64,000 nucleotides of DNA from Escherichia coli (GCF_044324875.1 NZ_CP172185.1), one strand, 5' to 3'. Counted from the stretch's first letter, positions 989 through 38,227 are shown. Notes: a model not told the origin generated them from the letters alone. Translations and numbers: made by a program.

Positions 989-2101
989 TTATCCATTATT
1001 AATCACCTTATACAACGGGAGCATCGCCGCGCCGCATGACGCACTCTGTGCTCCCATCGAAGAGGCAGCTAACTTCACTCTGGGGCGGTTGGGATCGAGG
1101 CAGGCTTCCATCAGTTGATTCAGTTCCTGCACCAGACGACTGATAATCGGTTTCGGCATCGCGCCACCGAGTACGATGATTTGCGGGTCTACCCACTGCA
1201 CACAGCTGAAGAGCGTCTGCTCCACCTGGCCACGACAGCGTTCAAACCAGCTTTCCAGCAGTGGGTGCTGCCCGGCTATCAGCTCCGGTAGCTTAGTTTC
1301 ACTGAATCCTTCACGCTCCAGTGTGGCAAGCAAATCCTTATACGACGGGCGCGGTGTACCGGATGGAAACGCCATCCCGACTTCACCGGCATTGCAGAAC
1401 CCGCCGCGTAGCATTTTATTCCCGGAGATAATACCCGCGCCGATACCGTAGCCAAGGTCGATAAAGGTTAGATCGCTGTACGCATTCCATTTGCCGCTGT
1501 ACAGTTCACCTACCGCCGAGGCGTTGGCATTATTTTCCACCCACGTCGGCCACGGCAGGTTGTCGGCAAACGCCTGCTGGAGATCTACCTCACGCCAGCT
1601 CTCCAGCCACGGTACGCTGTGGCGCTTGCGACCATCCGCTTTCAGAAATCCGGGCACTGCATAGCCAATGCCGAGAATACGTGCGTGCTGGAGCTGGCGC
1701 TTTTTCAGCATTTTCTCCACCAAGGTTTTGATCTGCGCGAGAGAGGCCTCCAGTGGCTGATTCTCCTGATGTGCTTCGCAAAGCGACAGCAGCTGGCGAC
1801 CACTGAGATCGACCACCGTCATATCGATAAAACCGGGACTGAACGACAACCCGATAGCACAACCGCCGCCGGGGTTAAGGCGCAACGGCAGCGACGGCTG
1901 GCCGCGCTGCCCGGTATTGCGCTCCCCTTCCACCACCAGGCCGGAGAACATCAGCTCTCGGCACTGTTGGGTGATCGCCCCCGCCGTCAGTCCCGACAGC
2001 CGTGCCAGTTCAGCCCGCGTCACCGGGGCGTGGAGACGGATCAGTTCCAGCAGCAGGCGCTGCGAACCACGTAGTTCAAGGCGTTCAGAGTGGGCGTTCA
2101 T
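989..2101 (-). CDS. ROK-family transcriptional regulator (NagC/Mlc-like)
   Basis: 370-aa ORF, ATG at 2099-2101; N-terminal HTH (VTRAELARLSGLTAGAITQQCRELMFSGLV) followed by glycine-rich sugar-kinase-like ROK fold (GIGYAVPG, DLGYGIGAGII). Confidence 0.8.
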   Translation of the reverse strand: MNAHSERLELRGSQRLLLELIRLHAPVTRAELARLSGLTAGAITQQCRELMFSGLVVEGERNTGQRGQPSLPLRLNPGGGCAIGLSFSPGFIDMTVVDLSGRQLLSLCEAHQENQPLEASLAQIKTLVEKMLKKRQLQHARILGIGYAVPGFLKADGRKRHSVPWLESWREVDLQQAFADNLPWPTWVENNANASAVGELYSGKWNAYSDLTFIDLGYGIGAGIISGNKMLRGGFCNAGEVGMAFPSGTPRPSYKDLLATLEREGFSETKLPELIAGQHPLLESWFERCRGQVEQTLFSCVQWVDPQIIVLGGAMPKPIISRLVQELNQLMEACLDPNRPRVKLAASSMGAQSASCGAAMLPLYKVINNG

Positions 2102-2116
2102 GGTGTCCTTATTTTT

Positions 2117-2947
2117 CTAGTTCCAGCGCAGGCCTGCTTCTTCAATCAGTCCCTGCAAATACGGAATATCATCGTGGCTGAGCATATCAATCAGCCCCGC
2201 CTGCATCCAGCCGATAATCACCGGACGACTGTCACAGCCGAATTTATAGTCGTACTGCTCCAGCGGCGTCATGCCGTTTTTCATTTCATGCAGATACATC
2301 CGCACGCCCAGTCCGGCATTTTTGTAGGCCCGCAGGTCGTCGATATGGGCGAACTCGAACTCAAAGCAGACGCATCCGGCATTGGACTGCTGTACCGCCG
2401 CAAGCTGGTTATTGTAGCGCTCCAGCGTCACCACCTGTAACGCCAGTTGCGGGATTTGCGCCTTCACCCGGTTGATCAGCACATGGTTGAAGCCCAGCAA
2501 CTGGATATGGCCGAGGGCATCCAGATGCTCATGCAGCAGTGCGACCAGCGCCGCCACAAACTCGTCATGGCGGTTGCGCTGTTTGACCTCAACAATCAGC
2601 CCCATGCTGTTTTCCACCGCCCAGCGCAGCACGTCCGCCAGCAAGGGGATGCGCGTTCCGGCAAACGACGGATGGTATTTCACGCCAAAGTCGCACGCCA
2701 GCAGCTGCGGGTACGTCATCTGCTCCACAAATCCGTGTCCGGTGGATACCCGGTCGATACGGTGATCGTGCGTGACCACCAGTTGGTTATCCGCCGTCAG
2801 GTGGATATCGATTTCAATACAGTGGGTTCCCGCCAGGCGGGCGGCTTCAAAGGCCGGGAATGTGTTCTCCGGCGCGCAGCTGGAATAACCTCGGTGGCTG
2901 TTGGCCAGCACGATCCCCTCTGCCGCCCGGTGAAAGTTAAACGCCAT
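2117..2947 (-). CDS. Glycerophosphodiester phosphodiesterase family protein
   Basis: 276-aa ORF; GDPD hallmarks HRG...ENT (LANSHRGYSSCAPENT) and E-x-D-x-H (IEIDIHLTADNQLVVTHD); 15 bp upstream of the ROK gene on the same strand. Confidence 0.8.
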   Translation of the reverse strand: MAFNFHRAAEGIVLANSHRGYSSCAPENTFPAFEAARLAGTHCIEIDIHLTADNQLVVTHDHRIDRVSTGHGFVEQMTYPQLLACDFGVKYHPSFAGTRIPLLADVLRWAVENSMGLIVEVKQRNRHDEFVAALVALLHEHLDALGHIQLLGFNHVLINRVKAQIPQLALQVVTLERYNNQLAAVQQSNAGCVCFEFEFAHIDDLRAYKNAGLGVRMYLHEMKNGMTPLEQYDYKFGCDSRPVIIGWMQAGLIDMLSHDDIPYLQGLIEEAGLRWN

Positions 2948-3162
2948 CTTCTTTTCCTCTCGAATGTAAGATGGTAATTAACTTTACTACTTAAATTTAA
3001 ATGTGAAAGATGTTTTTGTTATTTTATGGTTAATCCATTGTTTTATATGCTTTTAATTTGATATTTAGATCATTTTTTAGCTTTAAGGATCTGTGTCACA
3101 TAAATTTAATGTTTAGTATGTAAATTTAATAATCATCTTTTTAACCGATAGAAGAGAGACTC

Positions 3163-4230
3163 ATGTCAAAACTGGTTCTGGAACAGGTGACCAAAACCTT
3201 CGGCGAATTCTATGCCGCCAGGGAAATCTCGTTCTGCGCCGAAGAGGGGGAGTTCGTGACCCTGCTTGGGCCGAGCGGCTGCGGTAAAACCACCCTGCTG
3301 AAAATGATCGGCGGTTTTCACCAGCCGGACAGCGGACGCATTCTGATTGGCGATAAAACGGTCAACGCCCTGCCGCCAGAAAAGCGCAATACCGCCATGT
3401 GTTTCCAGTCCTATGCGCTGTTTCCGCACCTCAACGTGGCACACAACATCTGCTTCGGCCTGAAGCAGAAAAAAGTCGCTATCAGTGAACAGCAGGCCCG
3501 GCTGGCGGAGGCGCTGAAGCAGGTGGGGCTGGAGAGCCAGCGCCTGAAAATGCCCGCCCAGCTCTCCGGCGGCCAGCAGCAGCGCGTGGCGCTGGCGCGG
3601 GCGATGATCACCCGCCCGGACGTGATCCTGTTCGACGAACCGCTCTCCAACCTTGATGCCAAGCTGCGCGAAAGCGTGCGTTTTGAAATCAAGGAACTCC
3701 AGCGGCAGTATCAGCTCACCTCGATCTACGTCACACACGACCAGGCGGAAGCGCTGGCGATGTCGGATAAAATTGTGGTGCTGAACGCCGGTAATGTTGA
3801 GCAAATAGGCAAACCGGAAGAGATTTACTACCGTCCGGCCAACCGCTTTGTGGCCGACTTTATCGGCGCGGCCAATATCGACACCGCGCAGGTCACGCCC
3901 TCAGAGCAGCCGGGCTATTACCGGGTACGCTGTGCCCTCGGCGAGTTTTATGTGCATTCCGTACAGCCGCCACGCACAGAGCACTGCTATATCTGCTGGC
4001 GACCGGAAGATGCGCAGTATGTCAGCCAGCCTCAGGCAGGCAACAACCACTTCTCCCTGACGCTCGACAAAATGGCCTTTATGGGCAACCTCACCGAAGC
4101 CTGGGGCCACAACGACAGCGGGTTATCGGTCCGCTTACATCTAATTAAAAAGCCGCCCGTCGCCCCCGGCGAGAGTGCCTGCTTCCGTCTGGCGGAAAAC
4201 GCCATCCATTTTCTGGAGCCGGTATCATGA
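3163..4230 (+). CDS. ABC transporter ATP-binding protein (PotA/MalK/UgpC-like)
   Basis: Walker [10 protein letters not shown], signature [14 protein letters not shown], Walker [13 protein letters not shown]-terminal regulatory-type domain; ATG 3163; stop overlaps next start (ATGA at 4227). Confidence 0.9.
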
Positions 4231-5093
4231 AAAACTGGCGCAATGATGCGGTCGCCTGGCTGCTGATGCTCAGCGGGCTGGGCACGATCCTACTACTGAT
4301 GGGATCGACGTTTTATGTGGTGATCGTCCAGAGCCTGGGCTGGTTCAACATCGAAGGCGACAGCAATTTCTCGCTGGAATACTGGCGCAATATGTTGCAG
4401 GACGAAGTGTTGCAAAGCGCCCTGTTCTACTCAGTGAAAGTGTCACTGCTGGGGTCGTTCGGCTCGGTGATTTTCGCCTATCCGCTGGCGCTGTGGCTGC
4501 GTAAACCGATGGCCTATAAAGAGGGCATTATCGCGGTGCTGCGTGCGCCGATGTTTATCCCCGGTCTGGTGGCGGCGTTTCTGTTCGTCAATATCGTCGC
4601 TTATCACGGCATTATCAACGAACTGCTGCTGGCGCTGGGGATTATCAGCGAGCCGCTGCGGATGCAGAACGATGACTTCGGCTGGGGCGTGGTTATCCTG
4701 CAAATCTGGAAAAACCTGCCCTTCGCCCTGATCCTCGTCGGCGGCGCAGTCAACGCCATCCGTAACGACGTGCTGGACGCCGCCAGCAATCTCGGTGCCA
4801 GCCGCTGGCGCAGTTTTACCGGCGTGGTGGTGCCGCTGACGCTGCCCGCCGTGCAGGTGACGCTGATTCTGGTATTTATCGGCGCGCTGGGCGACTTCGC
4901 CTTCTTCTCGGTGGCCGGGCCACGCAACACCTACTCGCTGGCGCGGCTGATGCAGGCCACCGCCATGGAGTACGGCGAGTGGAATAACGCGGCGGTGATT
5001 GCGGTGATCATTATGGTCACGGCGGCCATCTGCACGTTGCTGATTGCCACACTGATTACCCCGTTCGCCACCCGCAAAGGAGAGGTCAAATGA
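4227..5093 (+). CDS. ABC transporter permease subunit 1
   Basis: 288-aa hydrophobic multi-TM protein translationally coupled to the ATPase; stop overlaps start of the next permease. Confidence 0.85.
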   Translation: MKNWRNDAVAWLLMLSGLGTILLLMGSTFYVVIVQSLGWFNIEGDSNFSLEYWRNMLQDEVLQSALFYSVKVSLLGSFGSVIFAYPLALWLRKPMAYKEGIIAVLRAPMFIPGLVAAFLFVNIVAYHGIINELLLALGIISEPLRMQNDDFGWGVVILQIWKNLPFALILVGGAVNAIRNDVLDAASNLGASRWRSFTGVVVPLTLPAVQVTLILVFIGALGDFAFFSVAGPRNTYSLARLMQATAMEYGEWNNAAVIAVIIMVTAAICTLLIATLITPFATRKGEVK

Positions 5094-32437: not shown

Positions 32438-33190
32438 TCACTGAGCTGTAATCAATGTACAGCGCTGTACCGGGCGATGGGTAATACCGGTCACAACCGG
32501 TAACCCCAGAGACAATGCAACTGTTTTTAACGCAATATACTGGCCGGATGTATCACCCCGGGCAGCCTGAAAACACCTTTCCACCCGGCATTGTCCGTCA
32601 GCACTTATCACCCGCCATGTCTGTTGCAATAAATCCACCCGTTGCGAACATTCTTCATCAACCGTGGCACTGACCCGTGGATGGCAAATGCTCGTCTGGC
32701 TGAGCAGCAACAGGCATCGCATTGTTGCTCCTCCATGTTGTTCCCGCAACCAGCGTAATACCACCGGTGGTGCTGGACTGGCCGTGTGATTACGTTCAGT
32801 AATACGCTCGTGCACCTGTCGGTAAAAGGAAGTACAGAATGCATGAATCTGTTGTCCGTTGATGTTTCCTTCTGCCGAATGGAGTGTGAAGTGGACGGCC
32901 AGCAGACGCGGCCAGTGATCCACCGCCTGCTGAATAAAACGCCGGATTTCCACCGGCTCTGAAAGTACGGTTTCGGTTATTTGCACGATTTGATCCCCTT
33001 GAATGTTGCTGAACCGGTGTCGGTACGCAGGAAAGCACGCCGAGACCGGTACGATGCCTGTTACAGCGAAGAACGAGGAATGACAGACGGGGGCAGCAGG
33101 TCGCCAGCACCAGGGACAGGGCTGATTTCCACAATACCAACGCTGGTATTTTGCACATTGCCAGCGTACCGGCATTACAACACGTTTCAT
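32438..33190 (-). CDS. Island protein, possibly YfjJ/YagK (inovirus Gp2-like) family
   Basis: Start taken at MKRVVMPV (ATG 33188-33190), overlapping the alpA stop as ATGA; DHWPRLLAVHFTLHSAEG resembles the YfjJ-family core. Confidence 0.4.
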   Translation of the reverse strand: MKRVVMPVRWQCAKYQRWYCGNQPCPWCWRPAAPVCHSSFFAVTGIVPVSACFPAYRHRFSNIQGDQIVQITETVLSEPVEIRRFIQQAVDHWPRLLAVHFTLHSAEGNINGQQIHAFCTSFYRQVHERITERNHTASPAPPVVLRWLREQHGGATMRCLLLLSQTSICHPRVSATVDEECSQRVDLLQQTWRVISADGQCRVERCFQAARGDTSGQYIALKTVALSLGLPVVTGITHRPVQRCTLITAQ

Positions 33191-33423
33191 GCGGCGACTC
33201 CCCGTGATGCTTCGATGCGCTGCTGCATCCACTGCTCCACTTCGCTTCTGTACCAGCGGCTGCTGCGGCCCAGTTTGATGGGTTTAGGGAAATGGCCTTC
33301 ACTGATCAGCTTGTAAAACCATTTGTCGGTCATACCAGTGAAGCTGGTGATGTAGTTCATGTCGATCAGGGGATCGTCGGCACGCAGCAATACGCTGTCG
33401 TGACCTGTCATTGAGGTCAACAT
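33187..33423 (-). CDS. alpA: AlpA-family phage/island regulatory protein (excisionase-like HTH)
   Basis: 78 aa; LIDMNYITSFTGMTDKWFYKLISEGHFPKPIKLGRSSRWYRSEVEQWM matches the AlpA/MerR-type HTH pattern. Confidence 0.75.
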   Translation of the reverse strand: MLTSMTGHDSVLLRADDPLIDMNYITSFTGMTDKWFYKLISEGHFPKPIKLGRSSRWYRSEVEQWMQQRIEASRGVAA

Positions 33424-33491
33424 GGTCAGAATGTCCTCTGTGAGATTTATGAATGTTGGGCAAATGCGGGTGAATCTGCTGAGCTGAGCTT

Positions 33492-34064
33492 TCAGAGCTG
33501 GCCTGCTACGGGATACCAGGGATTACCGGCGAGGTAACGGGCTTCCGGATCGCGCACACCACGACGATCGCGGGCGAAATCACTGAACGCCCATATCAGC
33601 TCTTTGAGTCTCTCTTCGCAGTCCGGTGAACGGGGATCCAGCAGCACATCCCGGGTAATCTGCTTCTGGTACGGTGCCGCTTCACCCGGTGACGCGAAGC
33701 CCAGTACGTTGCTCCAGGCATCCAGAATCAGCCGATCCAGTTCAGGGCCGTCGAAATATTCCTCCCTGACGCACAGCACCACGTGGTATTCCGGTTTTTC
33801 AGGATGACGAGTCAGGAGCCAGCAGAGATCACGTCCGGGGGTTGCATTCATCAGCGCACTGACGGTTTCGATAAAGGCCATACCGAACCAGGTTTTTCTG
33901 TCGCTGAAGATGTTGCCATGTTCCCCCGGCAGACGAAGCAGGATCCGCCGTATTCGGGAGCAGGGCTGCTCACGCAGCGCACGCTCAAGGACACCGATAA
34001 CTTTGCTCTGATAAGATGGCCAGAAGGGCGCCATGCTATAGTCGAAATAAGGGATAGCATTCAT
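33492..34064 (-). CDS. Island hypothetical protein, distantly YfjJ/YagK-like
   Basis: Start taken at MNAIPYFDY (ATG 34062-34064; track start is TTG); RIRRILLRLPGEHGN and YHVVLCVREEY segments. Confidence 0.4.
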   Translation of the reverse strand: MNAIPYFDYSMAPFWPSYQSKVIGVLERALREQPCSRIRRILLRLPGEHGNIFSDRKTWFGMAFIETVSALMNATPGRDLCWLLTRHPEKPEYHVVLCVREEYFDGPELDRLILDAWSNVLGFASPGEAAPYQKQITRDVLLDPRSPDCEERLKELIWAFSDFARDRRGVRDPEARYLAGNPWYPVAGQL

Positions 34065-34420
34065 AAGATATGTTCCGTTATACGCAGCCCACAACGCGTC
34101 CTGCCCGTGGATGCGCTGACGTGTTATGGCTTGCGTATGGGGTTGATGGAATAAGTGAAAAACCGCGGCAGAACGGGAAGATCAGGTAACCGACAAGGGA
34201 CAGAACACCGGATGCAGGTTCAGAATGAATGATCTCCGTTGACTTCGGTTCACATCATTAAGCAGGACAGTAAGGTTTTACCGACGGAGTGTTTCCAGGA
34301 GCGAAAGCAGAGAAAAATACCGTTGCATGACTTCAGGACGACTTTTTCAGAAAACGAGCTAAGGGCGTCAGCCAACGTCCTGTAGCATAAGCTCAGGCAC
34401 CGGATGTCGTTTTACAGGGC

Positions 34421-35152
34421 TCACCTGCCATCCAGTAGACGCCCCGGCCCACGACTGCAACCATAATTACGTTGCCCGGAACCGTTATGCAACTTCGTTT
34501 CATATTTCACGAGATAACTGGCTCTGTTCCGGGCTTTCTGCATCGCTTCCACATCACCACGCTTGACCCAGAGCACAGCGGATTCACCCGGCTTTTTGTC
34601 TGAAGCCTTCCTGGTATCAGAACATCCACCCGACAAAGGCGTATCATCGGAAGAAGGGCGAGCATCAGATGATGTCGGTTTACGGAAAGGCGTCCGCCTG
34701 GAAAAATGAACCAGTCCATTACCCTGCCAGGGCTCAAGATGCAGAGCACTACACCATGCCAGCTTGATCAGTGTCGCCAGCGAAGAAGGAACGGTGAAAT
34801 CCCCTGGCGAGCACCAGGTATCTTTGTTGAGCAGCAATATCACGTGATAATGTTTCCTGCCTTTTTCCTTGCCAAACTCCCGGCACCAGAAATAACGCAG
34901 AGTGGTTGCACGCACACGCTTGTTGGCACGTCGTTTTTTCCGCTGGTAAGCCTGAATTTTGGCTTTCAGGGATGCAAAAAAACGAGAAATCACCGCTGAA
35001 TCCGGATCGGGATCCATGATGGTGACAGGCATATACTCAGGGAAACGTAAATCCACCCGGATTAACGAGACGGCACGGTGCTGCGCCAGGGCACTGTCGA
35101 GAAGGCTGTCAAAACGGGATAACCAGTAAGCATTATGTATTGGTTGATTCAT
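34421..35152 (-). CDS. YfjJ/YagK-family (inovirus Gp2-like) island protein
   Basis: 243 aa, ATG 35150-35152; AVSLIRVDLRFPEYMP, RKHYHVILLLNKDTW. Confidence 0.6.
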   Translation of the reverse strand: MNQPIHNAYWLSRFDSLLDSALAQHRAVSLIRVDLRFPEYMPVTIMDPDPDSAVISRFFASLKAKIQAYQRKKRRANKRVRATTLRYFWCREFGKEKGRKHYHVILLLNKDTWCSPGDFTVPSSLATLIKLAWCSALHLEPWQGNGLVHFSRRTPFRKPTSSDARPSSDDTPLSGGCSDTRKASDKKPGESAVLWVKRGDVEAMQKARNRASYLVKYETKLHNGSGQRNYGCSRGPGRLLDGR

Positions 35153-36191
35153 GATGAGAGATCTCCGTTGATTTGGATTGACTTCACATCATTAATCACC
35201 GCAGTAAAACTTTACGGCGTCCTGTCATTAAGCAACACCAGTGGCTCCTGATTAGAACAGAATGAGTTTCCCACGAACAAAAAGACAAACCTACACGCAG
35301 GGTAAAAACACGCAACAACAGCATGAATGGATTTGAAAACAATATGGATGACGAAAAATGTCAAAAGTGAAACGGATCAACAGAACGTGCAAACAAAACG
35401 TCAGAAACGCAATCAGAGCACTTTCTGGCGCTGTGAATCAACAACAACACCAAAACCTACAGCTTAACCACATTACTCAATCACGAATGCGAATGACACG
35501 TTTAAAACCTGTTTACAGATAACGCCGTAACACGATCATCCCCATCACCATCAGAATCGATTTTCTCATCCCGAAAATGTTACGTTTCACTACGCACCAT
35601 AAAAACGATTAACCATCGATAACGTAAATCTCATCTGAATCAAAAAACCAAAACCAATCATCACACTTTCGCAATGCAAGAAGAAAAACCACATCATGAC
35701 GAAAACAATGACCTTACATGAAAAAGCAAAACGTCAGGAATCGTTAATGCCTCAATCTGATTGTTATCAAAACATCCAGAAAGTCGTTTAACAGAATCGT
35801 CGTAAGCACATCGAAAAGAACGTCAGATCACCTCAGGAAAGTTCGGGTTGATTTAGCGTAAAGATACTTTTCTCAGCTTAACGTCGAAACACAAACCAAA
35901 AACCACAAACAACCAAAGCTCAGGAAAGGTTAAACGTCACATCAGTAAAATCGAATAGCAGATTGATTGCTTAAACAGAAAGGTTTTACAGCAGCTTTAA
36001 ACTGATTTTAGCTAACGTAAAGATTTACTAAACTGGATGAGTTTCAGACAAAGCAATGTGTACAGCAATGCTTAATGAAAACACTTATAGGGCTGTTTAT
36101 GAAAACACGTGTATGTCTGGTAAAACACTTAGTAGAAAATACGTGTATAACACTTACTGAAATGCTTAGTAAAAATACTTAGTAAAATATG
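35153..36191. other. About 1 kb ORF-free, strongly A/C-skewed tract with short recurring motifs
   Basis: No track ORF of 60 aa or more on any frame; motifs aacgtcag (4 or more) and acgtaaa; dense acacttag/acacttac/tacttag plus acgtgtat repeats at 36100-36190 continuing after the IS2. Confidence 0.5.
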
Positions 36192-36282
36192 TAGACTGGC
36201 CCCCTGAATCTCCAGACAACCAGTATCACTTAAATAAGTGATAGTCTTAATACTAGTTTTTAGACTAGTCATTGGAGAACAG

Positions 36283-36648
36283 ATGATTGATGTCTTAGGG
36301 CCGGAGAAACGCAGACGGCGTACCACACAGGAAAAGATCGCAATTGTTCAGCAGAGCTTTGAACCGGGGATGACGGTCTCCCTCGTTGCCCGGCAACATG
36401 GTGTAGCAGCCAGCCAGTTATTTCTCTGGCGTAAGCAATACCAGGAAGGAAGTCTTACTGCTGTCGCCGCCGGAGAACAGGTTGTTCCTGCCTCTGAACT
36501 TGCTGCCGCCATGAAGCAGATTAAAGAACTCCAGCGCCTGCTCGGCAAGAAAACGATGGAAAATGAACTCCTCAAAGAAGCCGTTGAATATGGACGGGCA
36601 AAAAAGTGGATAGCGCACGCGCCCTTATTGCCCGGGGATGGGGAGTAA
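36283..36648 (+). CDS. insC: IS2 transposase OrfA (InsC)
   Basis: Identical translation to 8401-8766. Confidence 0.9.
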
Positions 36649-37511
36649 GCTTAGTCAGCCGTTGTCTCCGGGTGTCGCGTGCGCAGTTGCACGTCATTCT
36701 CAGACGAACCGATGACTGGATGGATGGCCGCCGCAGTCGTCACACTGATGATACGGATGTGCTTCTCCGTATACACCATGTTATCGGAGAGCTGCCAACG
36801 TATGGTTATCGTCGGGTATGGGCGCTGCTTCGCAGACAGGCAGAACTTGATGGTATGCCTGCGATCAATGCCAAACGTGTTTACCGGATCATGCGCCAGA
36901 ATGCGCTGTTGCTTGAGCGAAAACCTGCTGTACCGCCATCGAAACGGGCACATACAGGCAGAGTGGCTGTGAAAGAAAGTAATCAGCGATGGTGCTCTGA
37001 CGGGTTCGAGTTCCGCTGTGATAACGGAGAAAAACTGCGAGTCACGTTCGCGCTGGACTGCTGTGACCGTGAGGCACTGCACTGGGCGGTCACTACGGGC
37101 GGCTTCAACAGTGAAACAGTACAGGACGTCATGCTGGGAGCGGTGGAACGCCGCTTCGGCAACGAGCTTCCGGCGTCTCCAGTAGAGTGGCTGACGGATA
37201 ATGGTTCATGCTACCGGGCTAATGAAACACGGCAGTTTGCCCGGATGTTGGGGCTTGAACCGAAGAGCACGGCGGTGCGGAGTCCGGAGAGTAACGGCAT
37301 AGCAGAGAGCTTCGTGAAAACGATAAAGCGTGACTACATCAGTGTCATGCCCAAACCAGACGGGTTAACGGCAGCAAAGAACCTTGCAGAGGCGTTCGAG
37401 CATTATAACGAATGGCATCCGCATAGTGCACTGGGTTATCGCTCGCCACGGGAATATCTACGGCAGCAAGCCAGTAATGGGTTAAGTGATAACAGGTGTC
37501 TGGAAATATAG
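36606..37511 (+). CDS. insD: IS2 transposase OrfB (InsD)
   Basis: Identical translation to 8724-9629. Confidence 0.9.
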
Positions 37512-38227
37512 GGGCAAATCCAATATGTGTAGAATTATCTATTTAAAAAGATATGTATATAACACTTAATAAAAACATGTGTATATAGTATCATACCGAC
37601 ATTCTCAACATCTTCAGACTTCCATACATACTGGGTGTTGATTTCTCACTTTTACAGCCAGCATGGAGTTTTCTGTCCTAAAAACAGAGCAGATTTACTC
37701 TGGAATTATTTTTCTGCCCCCGTATTTCAGGCCCCAGAAAAGACAATCCGAAGCAAACCGTTTGTCAGCCTCCATATCATCTTTTACCCCCGGAAAGTGA
37801 TCGCGTTTTACAACCAGAATGACAGCCATACTGATTATGTCGTCTCCCGGCCCCCTTCACATATAACATGCATGTCTGTCATTGCTTACTGCTCCACATG
37901 ACCGGATTTCACATACAGGATGCACATTCAGTGTTTTTATCGCCACTATAACAGACAGATTACTGTCGTCTTTACTCTTCAGATTGTTAATCTGACCACA
38001 AGAACAGCCGAACGGCAAAACGCCCTCCACAAGGGGCACATGAACCATAGTTGATAGCATGTTTTTCCTAATCAAGGAATAGTTCAGGAATATTTTATTG
38101 CATTAATAACTGGCGAATAATCGTTCTGTGAACACAAAATGCTTTTATTTGTAAATTTTATTGCATTGCACTCGTTTTATTGATATGGGGTTTAATAACA
38201 GATAACCCGGAAAGAAGGAGAAAACAG

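Follow-up and report, generated by a model that had tools for sequence, protein, structure and literature searches.

A conserved Escherichia coli gene module, probably an island core, combining an AlpA regulator, three diverged YagK/YfjJ-type genes and a cysteine-rich micro-ORF overlapping the alpA stop codon

Four co-directional genes on the minus strand, P1, P2, alpA and P4, occupy positions 32438-35152 of the window, that is, of the whole 64 000-nucleotide stretch of E. coli DNA analyzed here, and we consider it probable, at about 70%, that this region is a core module, intact and conserved, of integrative islands in enterobacteria, of which IncHI1B plasmids carry a related version. The island type is a carrier of YeeP-like GTPase, DUF932, antirestriction, RadC and CbtA/CbeA genes. 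An AlpA regulator accompanied by a phage-replication-like gene in three diverged copies is an ordinary and widespread core of E. coli islands, and AlpA located beside genes of the 'inovirus Gp2 family' is already known from K-12, from the Shigella SRL island and from Pseudomonas islands. The module has one new feature only, a cysteine-rich mini-gene missing from the annotation, which begins at the alpA stop codon and in this strain is fused to the gene that follows. The features of the region are these:

34421-35152, minus strand: P1, a canonical YagK/YfjJ ('inovirus Gp2 family') protein of 243 aa
34219-34281, minus strand: leader repeat (TTAATGATGTGAA...GTCAACGGAGATC) of about 65 nt, with a second copy at 35148-35215 that abuts the start of P1
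33492-34064, minus strand: P2, a strongly diverged YagK/YfjJ paralog of 190 aa with an ATG start, an alternative TTG at 34094 being possible
33187-33423, minus strand: alpA, 78 aa, a predicted MerR-like winged-helix, excisionase-type DNA-binding regulator of the AlpA family
33101-33190, minus strand: conserved core of the micro-ORF, unannotated, with its ATG overlapping the alpA stop and here having the sequence MKRVVMPVRWQCAKYQRWYCGNQPCPWCWR
32987-33100, minus strand: linker between the micro-ORF and P4, created when this lineage lost a net 56-72 nt or so
32438-32986, minus strand: P4, 182 aa, with a conserved GTG start that is the same in RefSeq, the most diverged probable paralog of the YagK/YfjJ superfamily

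An earlier note on this DNA had described an alpA-like regulator flanked by three YfjJ/YagK-type ORFs of differing divergence, with which both the coordinates and the family comparisons agree, the divergence being very unequal. It had further suggested a decayed or composite integrative element. On such a reading the three genes would be remnants, the weaker copies being either decaying duplicates or stacked pieces of several elements. The mosaic nature of the surrounding island fits such decay, with its many IS remnants, an IS2 at 36193-37521 (1 kb upstream of P1 and absent from GF43), and a frameshifted ProQ/FinO gene plus an IS1 pseudogene just downstream of P4. The same can be said of the loss of catalytic motifs in P2 and P4, and of the lack of an integrase, which had also been pointed out: no tyrosine integrase, att site or tRNA was found within the window, the largest ORFs tested being transposases or core genes. 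In the homologous GF43 stretch an integrase is annotated as a 160-nt fragment only, located outside the part shared with the window. However, pN/pS ranged between 0.12 and 0.35 for all four genes, indicating purifying selection, with values of 0.12 for alpA and 0.33 for P1, and of 0.23 for P2 and 0.35 for P4 as computed across 54 and 25 distinct full-length alleles, respectively. At least 80% of the 3.6-kb module was covered in 237 genomes and at least 80% of alpA-P4 in 1223 genomes, and the order P1-P2-alpA-P4 recurs in many E. coli genomes ahead of differing downstream cargo; variants of the module either lack P1/P2 or have zinc-ribbon genes in place of P2. Klebsiella plasmids carry a parallel architecture, and recent stacking is unlikely because the paralogs are too diverged, showing no BLAST-level similarity. 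Pairwise BLASTP among P1, P2 and P4 gave E values of 0.02-0.05 around the HUH strand only, and nothing for P2 against P4. We therefore find leftovers of a decayed or composite element an improbable and largely refuted explanation, and do not take the triplication as a sign of either origin. The gene order is a conserved unit and not debris, and can hence be used as a marker for this island class.

P1 is the member of the set that is recognized directly. Its residues 23-233 matched positions 2-170 of the Pfam profile YagK_YfjJ_C (PF11726) with an E value of 9.8e-36 and 123.7 bits (cut-off 25.8), and it furthermore matched Pfam REP_ORF2-G2P (5.4e-10) and PHROG replication-initiation families (1e-6 to 1e-3), and was 31% identical over its full length to K-12 YfjJ (E 4e-29). 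An HUH-like motif, H101-Y-H103 within 'KHYHVILLLN', is nearly invariant in the alignment of the P1 family, in which a RAxYLxK motif is also conserved, seen in P1 as 'RASYLVKYETK' with Y212 and K215 towards the C-terminus. K-12 YfjJ and the other members of the family lack an insertion of about 36-45 aa that P1 carries at roughly 34592-34699. From these matches P1 is predicted to be a relative of the inovirus gpII rolling-circle initiator, with HUH-like and YxxK-like motifs still present. Among P1, P2 and P4 the complete HUH motif is present in P1 only; the metal-binding motif of the HUH superfamily is missing from P2 and P4, the aligned residues of which differ. The leader repeat at the start of P1 belongs with its other copy to the direct repeat families D2/D3, at 77-79% identity. 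The copy at 34219-34281 is located about 155 nt upstream of P2, with CTG at the position of the ATG, and it is kept in the loci L006-L009; no Rfam match was obtained for this repeat.

For P2, the family of which is centred on Escherichia, direct searches of Pfam (none at E<=1), NCBIfam and PHROG gave no match. An exhaustive HMMER search of a library of 1.8 billion proteins instead yielded a bridging homologue, P0312, 36% identical to P2 (E 1.8e-17) and itself matching YagK_YfjJ_C at 1.4e-10 and 41.8 bits, over the cut-off of 25.8. Comparing the P1 and P2 families with hhalign gave a probability of 98.6% (E 9e-16, 151 columns), and through the bridging homologue and this profile-profile comparison P2 is assigned to the YagK/YfjJ superfamily. 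It keeps only the second His of the HUH motif ('EYHVVL', E-Y-H, where P0312 and P0316 read C/F-Y-H), and hhalign placed 'SDFARD', having no Tyr, at the position of the Tyr motif. The AlphaFold model of P2 (pLDDT 38) was unusable.

P4 was more difficult to place. There was no match to Pfam PF11726 at E<=10 for this protein, nor for two of its homologues that are named 'inovirus Gp2' at NCBI, and direct searches of NCBIfam and PHROG also gave none. The earlier note had named as its refutation that profile searches fail for the two weaker candidates; P2 and P4 did fail the direct search, in which P1 scored above cut-off, but both were rescued by transitive and profile-profile comparison. Homologues of P4 carry a precomputed Pfam family, PF27752.1, an accession newer than the Pfam copy searched here, and go by such names as 'inovirus Gp2 family', 'YagK/YfjJ domain-containing' and 'UCP030791 family'. 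A Klebsiella intermediate, L137:4142-4708, was linked to P4 by BLASTP (2e-11) and hhalign (97.3%), with its own match to YagK_YfjJ_C being sub-threshold (E 0.0022, 18.4 bits, cut-off 25.8). Profile-profile comparison of the P4 family with YagK/YfjJ profiles gave 92.9-95.1% with E values of 3.7e-7 to 3.4e-8, and shuffle controls gave 2/3000 and 0/3000, for an empirical p <=7e-4. The AlphaFold model of P4 (pLDDT 65) shows a beta-alpha-beta-beta-alpha-beta core. Using shallow alignments, a first round of hhalign had given 6-8% probability, which rose only once distant homologues were added; scanning the genome collection with the P4 alignment returned two close relatives only, so that no diversity was gained in that manner.

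One could thus argue that P4, and possibly P2, is not a homologue of YfjJ at all, and that the resemblance is convergent or due to chance between small alpha/beta proteins. The lack of a direct match in Pfam 11726.14 even at E<=10, the hhalign probabilities of only 8-24% without the bridging sequence, and a non-specific fold search all fit that notion. Against it stand, for P2, the 98.6% and a bridge that passes the Pfam cut-off and, for P4, the 95.1% and E of 3.4e-8 reached once one homologue was added, the low empirical p, and a match that is collinear over 109-144 columns through a helix, strand 1, a long helix, the strand pair and the next helix. The independent naming by PGAP and UniProt and the conserved genomic association also agree with homology, which makes a convergent or chance resemblance very improbable. 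P4 hence appears, at 95% probability by the intermediate and the profile-profile comparison, to belong to the YagK/YfjJ superfamily, on a case weaker than that for P2. At the HUH position it reads 'TMRCLLLLSQ' (M-R-C) with no His left. Its conserved QY150xALKT was considered as a counterpart of the YLxK of P1, for which the alignment, of low confidence in this part, gave no support, the two not being placed opposite each other. Proteins of the P2 type (WP_096996261-type) and the P4 type (WP_001167455-type), both 'hypothetical proteins' that are widespread in E. coli, can with these assignments be counted among the YagK/YfjJ Rep-like superfamily, neither type having a complete HUH motif, which suggests testable roles for them as non-catalytic partners of a possible nickase.

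The alpA gene itself matched Pfam Phage_AlpA (PF05930) at 2.9e-10 and 40.3 bits (cut-off 21), as well as PHROG excisionase/transcriptional-regulator families with E values down to 8e-10. Its product is 73% identical to the AlpA of the Klebsiella plasmid, and gave no BLASTP alignment with the AlpA of K-12. The ATGA overlap at its stop that was reported earlier is indeed in the sequence (ATG 33190-33188, TGA 33189-33187), with an SD-like GGGGAG inside the last codons of alpA, 7 nt before the ATG. We gathered 96 alpA loci by an anchor inside alpA, independent of the sequence that follows, and the overlap was found at most of the related alpA 3' ends, with an intact ORF core starting there in at least 73 of the 96. 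What did not hold was the further claim that the overlapping start is that of a YfjJ-like gene, since the ancestral partner of alpA is a cysteine-rich micro-ORF, to which P4 has become fused here only in this lineage. In most relatives the micro-ORF is separate, and some 150-200 nt lie between its start and that of P4, which has its own GTG or ATG.

This ancestral ORF spans 30-50 codons with five cysteines (MKRVVMPVRWQCAKCRRWYCGNQPCPWCWR...). With the C that relatives carry at residue 15 the pattern is CxxC-x4-C-x4-CxxC, whereas the window has a Cys15-to-Tyr substitution with the first knuckle reading CAKY; the CxxC...CxxC spacing of the putative metal site is visible in these sequences. The micro-ORF is under purifying selection: pN/pS is 0.23 in its own frame but 2.19 and 1.06 in the two alternative frames, and third codon positions account for 20 of its 40 variable sites. 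Gene callers hardly ever report it, RefSeq does not annotate it, and where this was checked, in the loci L006 and L137, an ORF on the opposite strand was called that occupies or covers its position. No curated family emerged from searches of Pfam, NCBIfam and PHROG; the E. coli peptides had no match to Pfam Zn_ribbon_11 (PF11682) at E<=10, and the Klebsiella ortholog scored 14.9 bits with it, below the cut-off of 24. Apparent in-frame fusions of AlpA with the micro-ORF in L022, L075 and L112 were set aside, since in these loci alpA carries an interruption further upstream.

The conserved 90 nt after alpA might alternatively be noncoding, serving as a regulatory element in DNA or RNA, such as a site for AlpA binding or antitermination or a transcript structure, with the ORF being incidental. 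Nucleotide identity of 85-90% with a sharp drop beyond the 90 nt would suit such an element, as would an ORF so tiny, of no curated family, disrupted in a minority of loci and almost never called. The substitutions are, however, frame-specific as given above, and all five Cys codons are retained while TGT and TGC alternate. The Klebsiella ortholog, moreover, keeps the peptide motif PVRW.C..CRR.YCG..PCP.C.R despite starting 17 nt downstream of the alpA stop with a separate SD. A noncoding element is for these reasons unlikely. An Rfam scan of 31500-36300 gave one match, at chance level, and scans for promoters and terminators performed no better than with shuffles. Our own suggestion, which we put forward only tentatively, is that the ATGA-coupled five-cysteine micro-ORF, having a 30-residue core and a variable tail, may encode a real and hitherto unrecognized micro-protein made in step with AlpA, acting as its zinc-binding partner or modulator in the control of excision or transcription in IncHI plasmids and in islands of a large enterobacterial class. 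If translated, it would be a candidate cofactor of a family of island-excision regulators, thereby having bearing on the mobilization of pathogenicity islands.

The reading frame of P4 in the window is open upstream as far as the ATG at 33190, thus forming an ORF of 250 aa (33190-32438) that is an in-frame fusion of the micro-ORF to P4, specific to this lineage. In the window 200 nt separate the alpA stop from the start of P4, compared with 256-272 nt in L003 and L006-L009, and the open stretch in frame upstream of P4 spans 99 codons compared with 11-61 in relatives, where the linker region has stop codons or a change of frame. It may be asked whether this ORF gives the real product here, as a zinc-ribbon-plus-YfjJ-like fusion translationally coupled to AlpA. 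In favour of this, no stop interrupts the frame in this lineage, gene calls on 578 contigs include the exact 250-aa protein, the SD-like GGGGAG precedes the fusion ATG by 7 nt, and the same fusion occurs in L037, L064, L073 and L108, the last of these having Cys15 intact and a different allele for its P4 part. On the other hand, stop codons or a frame change part the two ORFs in all of the non-fused relatives examined (L003, L004, L006-L011), and the own GTG/ATG start of P4 with its SD is conserved and still present in the window, here as a purine-rich AAGGGGA 7 nt upstream of the GTG; RefSeq likewise starts P4 at 32986. The linker is rich in Cys and Trp, derived from non-coding DNA and unconserved as protein, and N-terminal extensions of P4 were not conserved in the protein alignment. 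That the fusion protein is the real product we accordingly regard as doubtful, although products of 250 aa and 182 aa could both be present side by side. Should the micro-protein reading be true, its fusion to a catalytically dead P4 would indicate a physical complex of AlpA, the micro-protein and the YfjJ paralog.

Regarding how such a module might operate, we infer its functions throughout. The micro-protein would be made by coupled re-initiation at the ATGA, with the SD buried in the last alpA codons, and would bind zinc and act together with AlpA, which in turn may activate excision, transcription of the downstream genes on the same strand, or both. Nicking and replication of the circle so excised may fall to P1, with P2 and P4, their catalytic residues lost, possibly serving as non-catalytic DNA-binding or regulatory partners. 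We know of no YagK/YfjJ protein with known activity, and a literature search on YfjJ/YagK function, PF11726/PF27752 and AlpA together with a zinc ribbon found no functional study.

Among the closest known systems, CP4-57, a cryptic prophage of E. coli K-12 (intA-yfjH-alpA-yfjI-yfjJ), has like the module here an AlpA-family regulator followed by a YagK/YfjJ protein on the same strand, and the wider island shares the backbone of GTPase, DUF932, antirestriction, RadC and toxin-antitoxin genes. The module studied here, however, has neither an adjoining integrase nor YfjI (DUF3987), and it has three YfjJ-type genes instead of one, two of them upstream of alpA; K-12 has no micro-ORF after alpA. The comparison with CP4-57-like islands that the earlier note had proposed did not bear out synteny and orthology, as order and gene content differ, AlpA cannot be aligned with that of K-12 and P1 is only 31% identical to YfjJ. 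The SRL island of Shigella flexneri, which we liken to the module from annotation tables alone, has a YfjJ-like orf39, a Vis/AlpA-like orf41 and orf5/orf6 of the Gp2 family (PMC6980539). ORFs of the 'inovirus Gp2 family', several in number, surround its Vis/AlpA-type gene, and a YeeP/Ag43/YfjQ backbone follows; neither a micro-ORF nor a paralog analysis has been reported for it. Genomic islands have been proposed to count alpA and inovirus Gp2-like genes among their likely core genes (PMC12595487), and in the Pseudomonas tmRNA-site islands I23, I44 and I55, likened here by their description, alpA adjoins an inovirus Gp2-like gene in a proposed core with RadC (PMC12595487). Those islands belong to another genus, have only one Gp2-like gene, carry an integrase at the opposite end and are transferred through jumbo-phage transduction (PMC12595487). 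With gpII of the Ff phages, an HUH rolling-circle initiator, P1 shares the His-hydrophobic-His and Tyr-x-x-Lys motifs, and the P4 model has a predicted ferredoxin-like core; the proteins here are far shorter, and P2 and P4 are without the catalytic residues. Finally, the locus on an IncHI1B-type plasmid of Klebsiella/Raoultella/Citrobacter (NZ_CP095633.1, L137) differs in being plasmid-borne, in lacking a P2 homologue, in having a micro-ORF with its own SD that does not overlap alpA, and in carrying two DUF7828+Zn_ribbon_11 genes between the micro-ORF and the P4 homologue, but it has, in this order, a Gp2 family protein (155 bits with YagK_YfjJ_C), AlpA, a micro-ORF with the same Cys motif and a diverged homologue of P4.

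Four ORFs, all in the same direction, were found on the minus strand from 32438 to 35152, and the ATG at 33190-33188 overlaps the stop codon of alpA (33189-33187) as ATGA. The observation made in the earlier note was confirmed, and its interpretation was partly right. We give a probability of about 0.7–0.8 to the following structural description (P1-P2-alpA-micro-ORF-P4), with P1, P2 and P4 being YagK/YfjJ-like genes and the micro-ORF a short Cys-rich frame:

34421-35152, minus strand: P1, 243 aa
33492-34064, minus strand: P2, 190 aa from the ATG used by homologues and RefSeq, with TTG at 34094 as a second possible start
33187-33423, minus strand: alpA, 78 aa
33101-33190, minus strand: micro-ORF, with orthologs in related loci, such as ~3210-3320 (minus) in L007 and 2971-3105 (plus) in the Klebsiella plasmid locus L137
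ending at 32438, minus strand: long ORF containing P4; its frame stays open upstream as far as the ATG at 33190, and beyond it to a GTG at 33232

E. coli GF43 matches the region 32000-35600 at 100% identity and GPEC1040 at 99.7%; RefSeq has the same four genes there, starting P4 at the GTG at 32986 (182 aa) and labeling it 'hypothetical protein' or 'YagK/YfjJ domain-containing protein'.

By its sequence, P1 was unambiguously assignable as a YagK/YfjJ ('inovirus Gp2') protein, matching Pfam YagK_YfjJ_C at 9.8e-36, REP_ORF2-G2P at 5.4e-10 and also phage replication-initiator PHROGs, and being 31% identical to K-12 YfjJ along its whole length. In its family alignment H-Y-H was almost invariant and an RAxYLxK motif was conserved, motifs of these types being hallmarks of HUH rolling-circle initiators. 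The alpA product scored above the Pfam Phage_AlpA cut-off. P1 also has an insertion of 36–45 aa rich in Ser, Pro, Asp and Lys (~34592-34699, residues ~152-187), which follows the HUH helix region, precedes the Tyr motif and is found neither in K-12 YfjJ nor in relatives outside Escherichia; several database variants (P0234, P0248 and P0255) have this part in a different frame and terminate early.

Direct searches of Pfam, NCBIfam and PHROGs gave no match for either P2 or P4, and pairwise BLASTP among the three proteins reached E 0.02–0.05 at best, around the HUH strand, so that direct profile searching failed to support the YfjJ membership that the earlier note had suggested for the two weaker candidates. 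When P2 was searched exhaustively with HMMER against 1.8 billion representatives, most hits were Escherichia fragments; two others, P0312 (36% identity, E 1.8e-17) and P0316 (32% identity, E 3.3e-8), were distant relatives of full length. P0312 itself scores above the cut-off of YagK_YfjJ_C, at 41.8 bits (E 1.4e-10). With both added, hhalign aligned the P1 and P2 families over 151 columns at 98.6% probability (E 9e-16), and P2 is almost certainly a paralog within the YagK/YfjJ superfamily.

Support for the paralogy of P4 is weaker than for P2. Using a shallow alignment of E. coli sequences only, hhalign gave probabilities of 8–24%, with the same collinear 109 columns every time, and HMM scores of P4 against a merged YagK/YfjJ profile were above those of 2998/3000 and 3000/3000 shuffles. 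A tblastn search aimed elsewhere brought up the Klebsiella IncHI1B plasmid locus, in which an 'inovirus-type Gp2 protein' (L137:4142-4708) is clearly homologous to P4 (BLASTP 2e-11; hhalign 97.3%). Of the Pfam models, YagK_YfjJ_C matched this protein best, with an E of 0.0022 and a score of 18.4 bits, under the cut-off. Adding this protein raised the P4 family to 92.9% (E 3.7e-7) against the P1 family and to 95.1% (E 3.4e-8, 144 columns) against a merged P1+P2 profile. An AlphaFold model of P4 (pLDDT 65) had the expected Rep-fold order of helix, strand, long helix, strand pair, helix and strand, which we count as consistent only, because fold searches with P4 gave non-specific matches. Very probably P4 is thus also a superfamily paralog, and the claim that three such genes flank alpA was upheld. 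Fusion of P4 to a Zn_ribbon_11 domain was seen in one database protein (P0052).

The HUH site reads HYH in P1, (E/C/F)-Y-H in the P2 family, M-R-C in the P4 family and C-K-M in the Klebsiella homologue of P4. The P2 segment aligned opposite the Tyr motif of P1 reads SDFARD, and P4 keeps a conserved QYxALKT, but the low-confidence alignment does not set it against the Tyr of P1. Based on these comparisons at the HUH and Tyr positions, P1 alone of the three looks capable of DNA nicking.

The frame opening at the alpA stop codon pointed to a likely further gene. The P4 N-terminus is MQITE in RefSeq and most database homologues, the extensions of the few longer calls being unalignable. In eight relatives without a fusion (L003, L004 and L006-L011), a purine-rich SD precedes the conserved GTG/ATG of P4 in every case and the frame before it is open for 11–61 codons, compared with 99 here; between the alpA stop and the start of P4 lie 256–272 nt in the five where this was measurable, compared with 200 nt here. 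DNA alignment showed the ATGA and the next ~90 nt to be conserved in all eight, translating to MKRVVMPVRWQCAKCRRWYCGNQPCPWCWR plus a tail of 0–20 residues. An unbiased sample of metagenome contigs was collected using a 14-base anchor within alpA (EQWMQQR), independent of downstream sequence, and the core was intact in 73 of its 96 alpA-type loci. Another 17 failed the intact-core test (about 13 frameshifted or with an early stop, three cut by contig ends and one filter-rejected variant, L113), and six had no ATGAAACG start (three with ATG mutated to ATA, three diverged or rearranged after the anchor). Among 32 distinct 90-nt alleles, pN/pS was 0.23 in frame, with a slight bias to low pN as an 'intact' core demanded a loose peptide pattern, and 2.19 and 1.06 in the other frames; half of the sites that vary are third codon positions, and none of the five Cys codons was lost, TGT and TGC alternating.

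The Klebsiella ortholog has 44 codons, starts 17 nt past the alpA stop with its own GGGAGGA and retains the motif PVRW.C..CRR.YCG..PCP.C.R; it is independent support for the micro-ORF, which we consider likely to be a real coding gene. The peptide had no curated-family match, the top score being 14.9 bits for the Klebsiella version against Zn_ribbon_11. Databases hardly ever call the gene, and RefSeq leaves the site blank or calls 'hypothetical proteins' on the opposite strand, as PGAP did at 3145-3300 in L006 and 2991-3170 in L137. We infer that the micro-protein would be coupled to alpA, bind zinc and act as a partner of AlpA. In three metagenome contigs of one lineage (L022, L075 and L112), the alpA stop is lost, placing the alpA 3' end in frame with the micro-ORF, and a stop further upstream interrupts alpA, yet the micro-ORF core is intact.

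In the window, the micro-ORF carries a Cys15-to-Tyr change, and a net loss of ~60–70 nt deletes its stop and joins it in frame to P4; a 250-aa fusion, the 182-aa protein or both may be produced. The same fusion was found in L037, L064 and L073; L108 is fused too, but with Cys15 intact and another P4 allele.

The earlier note had read the triplication as a sign of a decayed or composite element. Complete E. coli genomes with 80% coverage or more numbered 237 for the 3.6-kb module and 1223 for alpA-P4, and in the loci inspected the order P1-P2-alpA-P4 precedes differing cargo (CdiBAI, KwaAB or ProQ/FinO), with L010 (without P1 and P2) and L011 (two zinc-ribbon genes in place of P2, 3876-4666) as exceptions. 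Codon-level comparison of distinct full-length alleles from genomes and metagenomes gave pN/pS of 0.33 for P1 (25 alleles), 0.23 for P2 (54), 0.12 for alpA (49) and 0.35 for P4 (25). Given this conserved order, the low pN/pS and the Klebsiella parallel, the triplication is an old, maintained architecture and not decay.

The surrounding island is a mosaic, with numerous IS remnants. An IS2 (IS3 family; 36193-37521, orfA 36238-36648, orfB 36606-37511) lies ~1 kb upstream of P1; it is absent from the otherwise near-identical GF43 and GPEC1040 sequences, and its exact junction occurred in none of the collection's complete genomes. Downstream of P4 lie an IS1 pseudogene and a ProQ/FinO-domain gene (31912-32420, plus strand) that is frameshifted and convergent with P4. 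RefSeq records the frameshift in GF43 and GPEC1040, and the gene is intact at the equivalent position in L010; it may regularly accompany the module. In agreement with the earlier note, neither the large ORFs tested nor the annotated part of GF43 that corresponds to the shared stretch yielded a tyrosine integrase. The same island runs on in GF43 via ParDE and an integrase fragment to cadC; here its right end, from ~46170-46555 onward, adjoins the core genes glnP-glnQ-ybiO-rlmF-fiu...dinG-rhlE. Because the whole window is without a tRNA and glnH is missing at this junction, a rearrangement or deletion is suggested there. A ~65-nt leader (TTAATGATGTGAA...GTCAACGGAGATC) was also seen twice, at 35148-35215, abutting the P1 start codon, and at 34219-34281, ~155 nt upstream of P2 with CTG at the ATG position; the latter copy is kept in other loci whose P1 upstream region differs. 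It could be a shared promoter/5'-UTR or a relic of tandem duplication.

AlpA-family proteins are excisionase-type winged-helix regulators, and K-12 AlpA activates intA and CP4-57 excision. AlpA, co-produced with the micro-protein, might here turn on excision and/or co-directional downstream genes, with P1 as a Rep-like nickase acting on the excised circle and P2 and P4 as non-catalytic DNA-binding paralogs targeting or restraining P1, a functional picture that, as a whole, we regard as doubtful. In another E. coli island (L139, NZ_CP123332.1, 16649-22491), P1, P2, alpA, P4, two small ORFs and cdiB-cdiA-cdiI are co-directional, which fits AlpA-driven read-through into downstream cargo. In PMC12595487, AlpA and Gp2-like genes are regarded as probable core functions of islands. 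The module belongs to a kind of island core that is already known; worth keeping are the micro-ORF, which is unannotated, and the placement of P2 and P4, two common 'hypothetical proteins', in a Rep-like superfamily.

Among named systems, K-12 CP4-57 and the Shigella SRL island (PMC6980539) come closest. The module itself is not orthologous to CP4-57: the two AlpA proteins give no BLASTP alignment, YfjI is absent from the module, the gene order differs and K-12 has no micro-ORF. In some loci (L137, L011) pairs of 'putative zinc ribbon proteins' (DUF7828 + Zn_ribbon_11) occupy the P2/P4 position, Zn_ribbon_11 being also the model that the Klebsiella micro-ORF ortholog weakly matches. The Klebsiella plasmid (NZ_CP095633.1, IncHI1B/FIB), with an AlpA 73% identical to that of the window, carries at 1992-4708 a Gp2, AlpA, the micro-ORF, two zinc-ribbon genes and a diverged Gp2-like gene.
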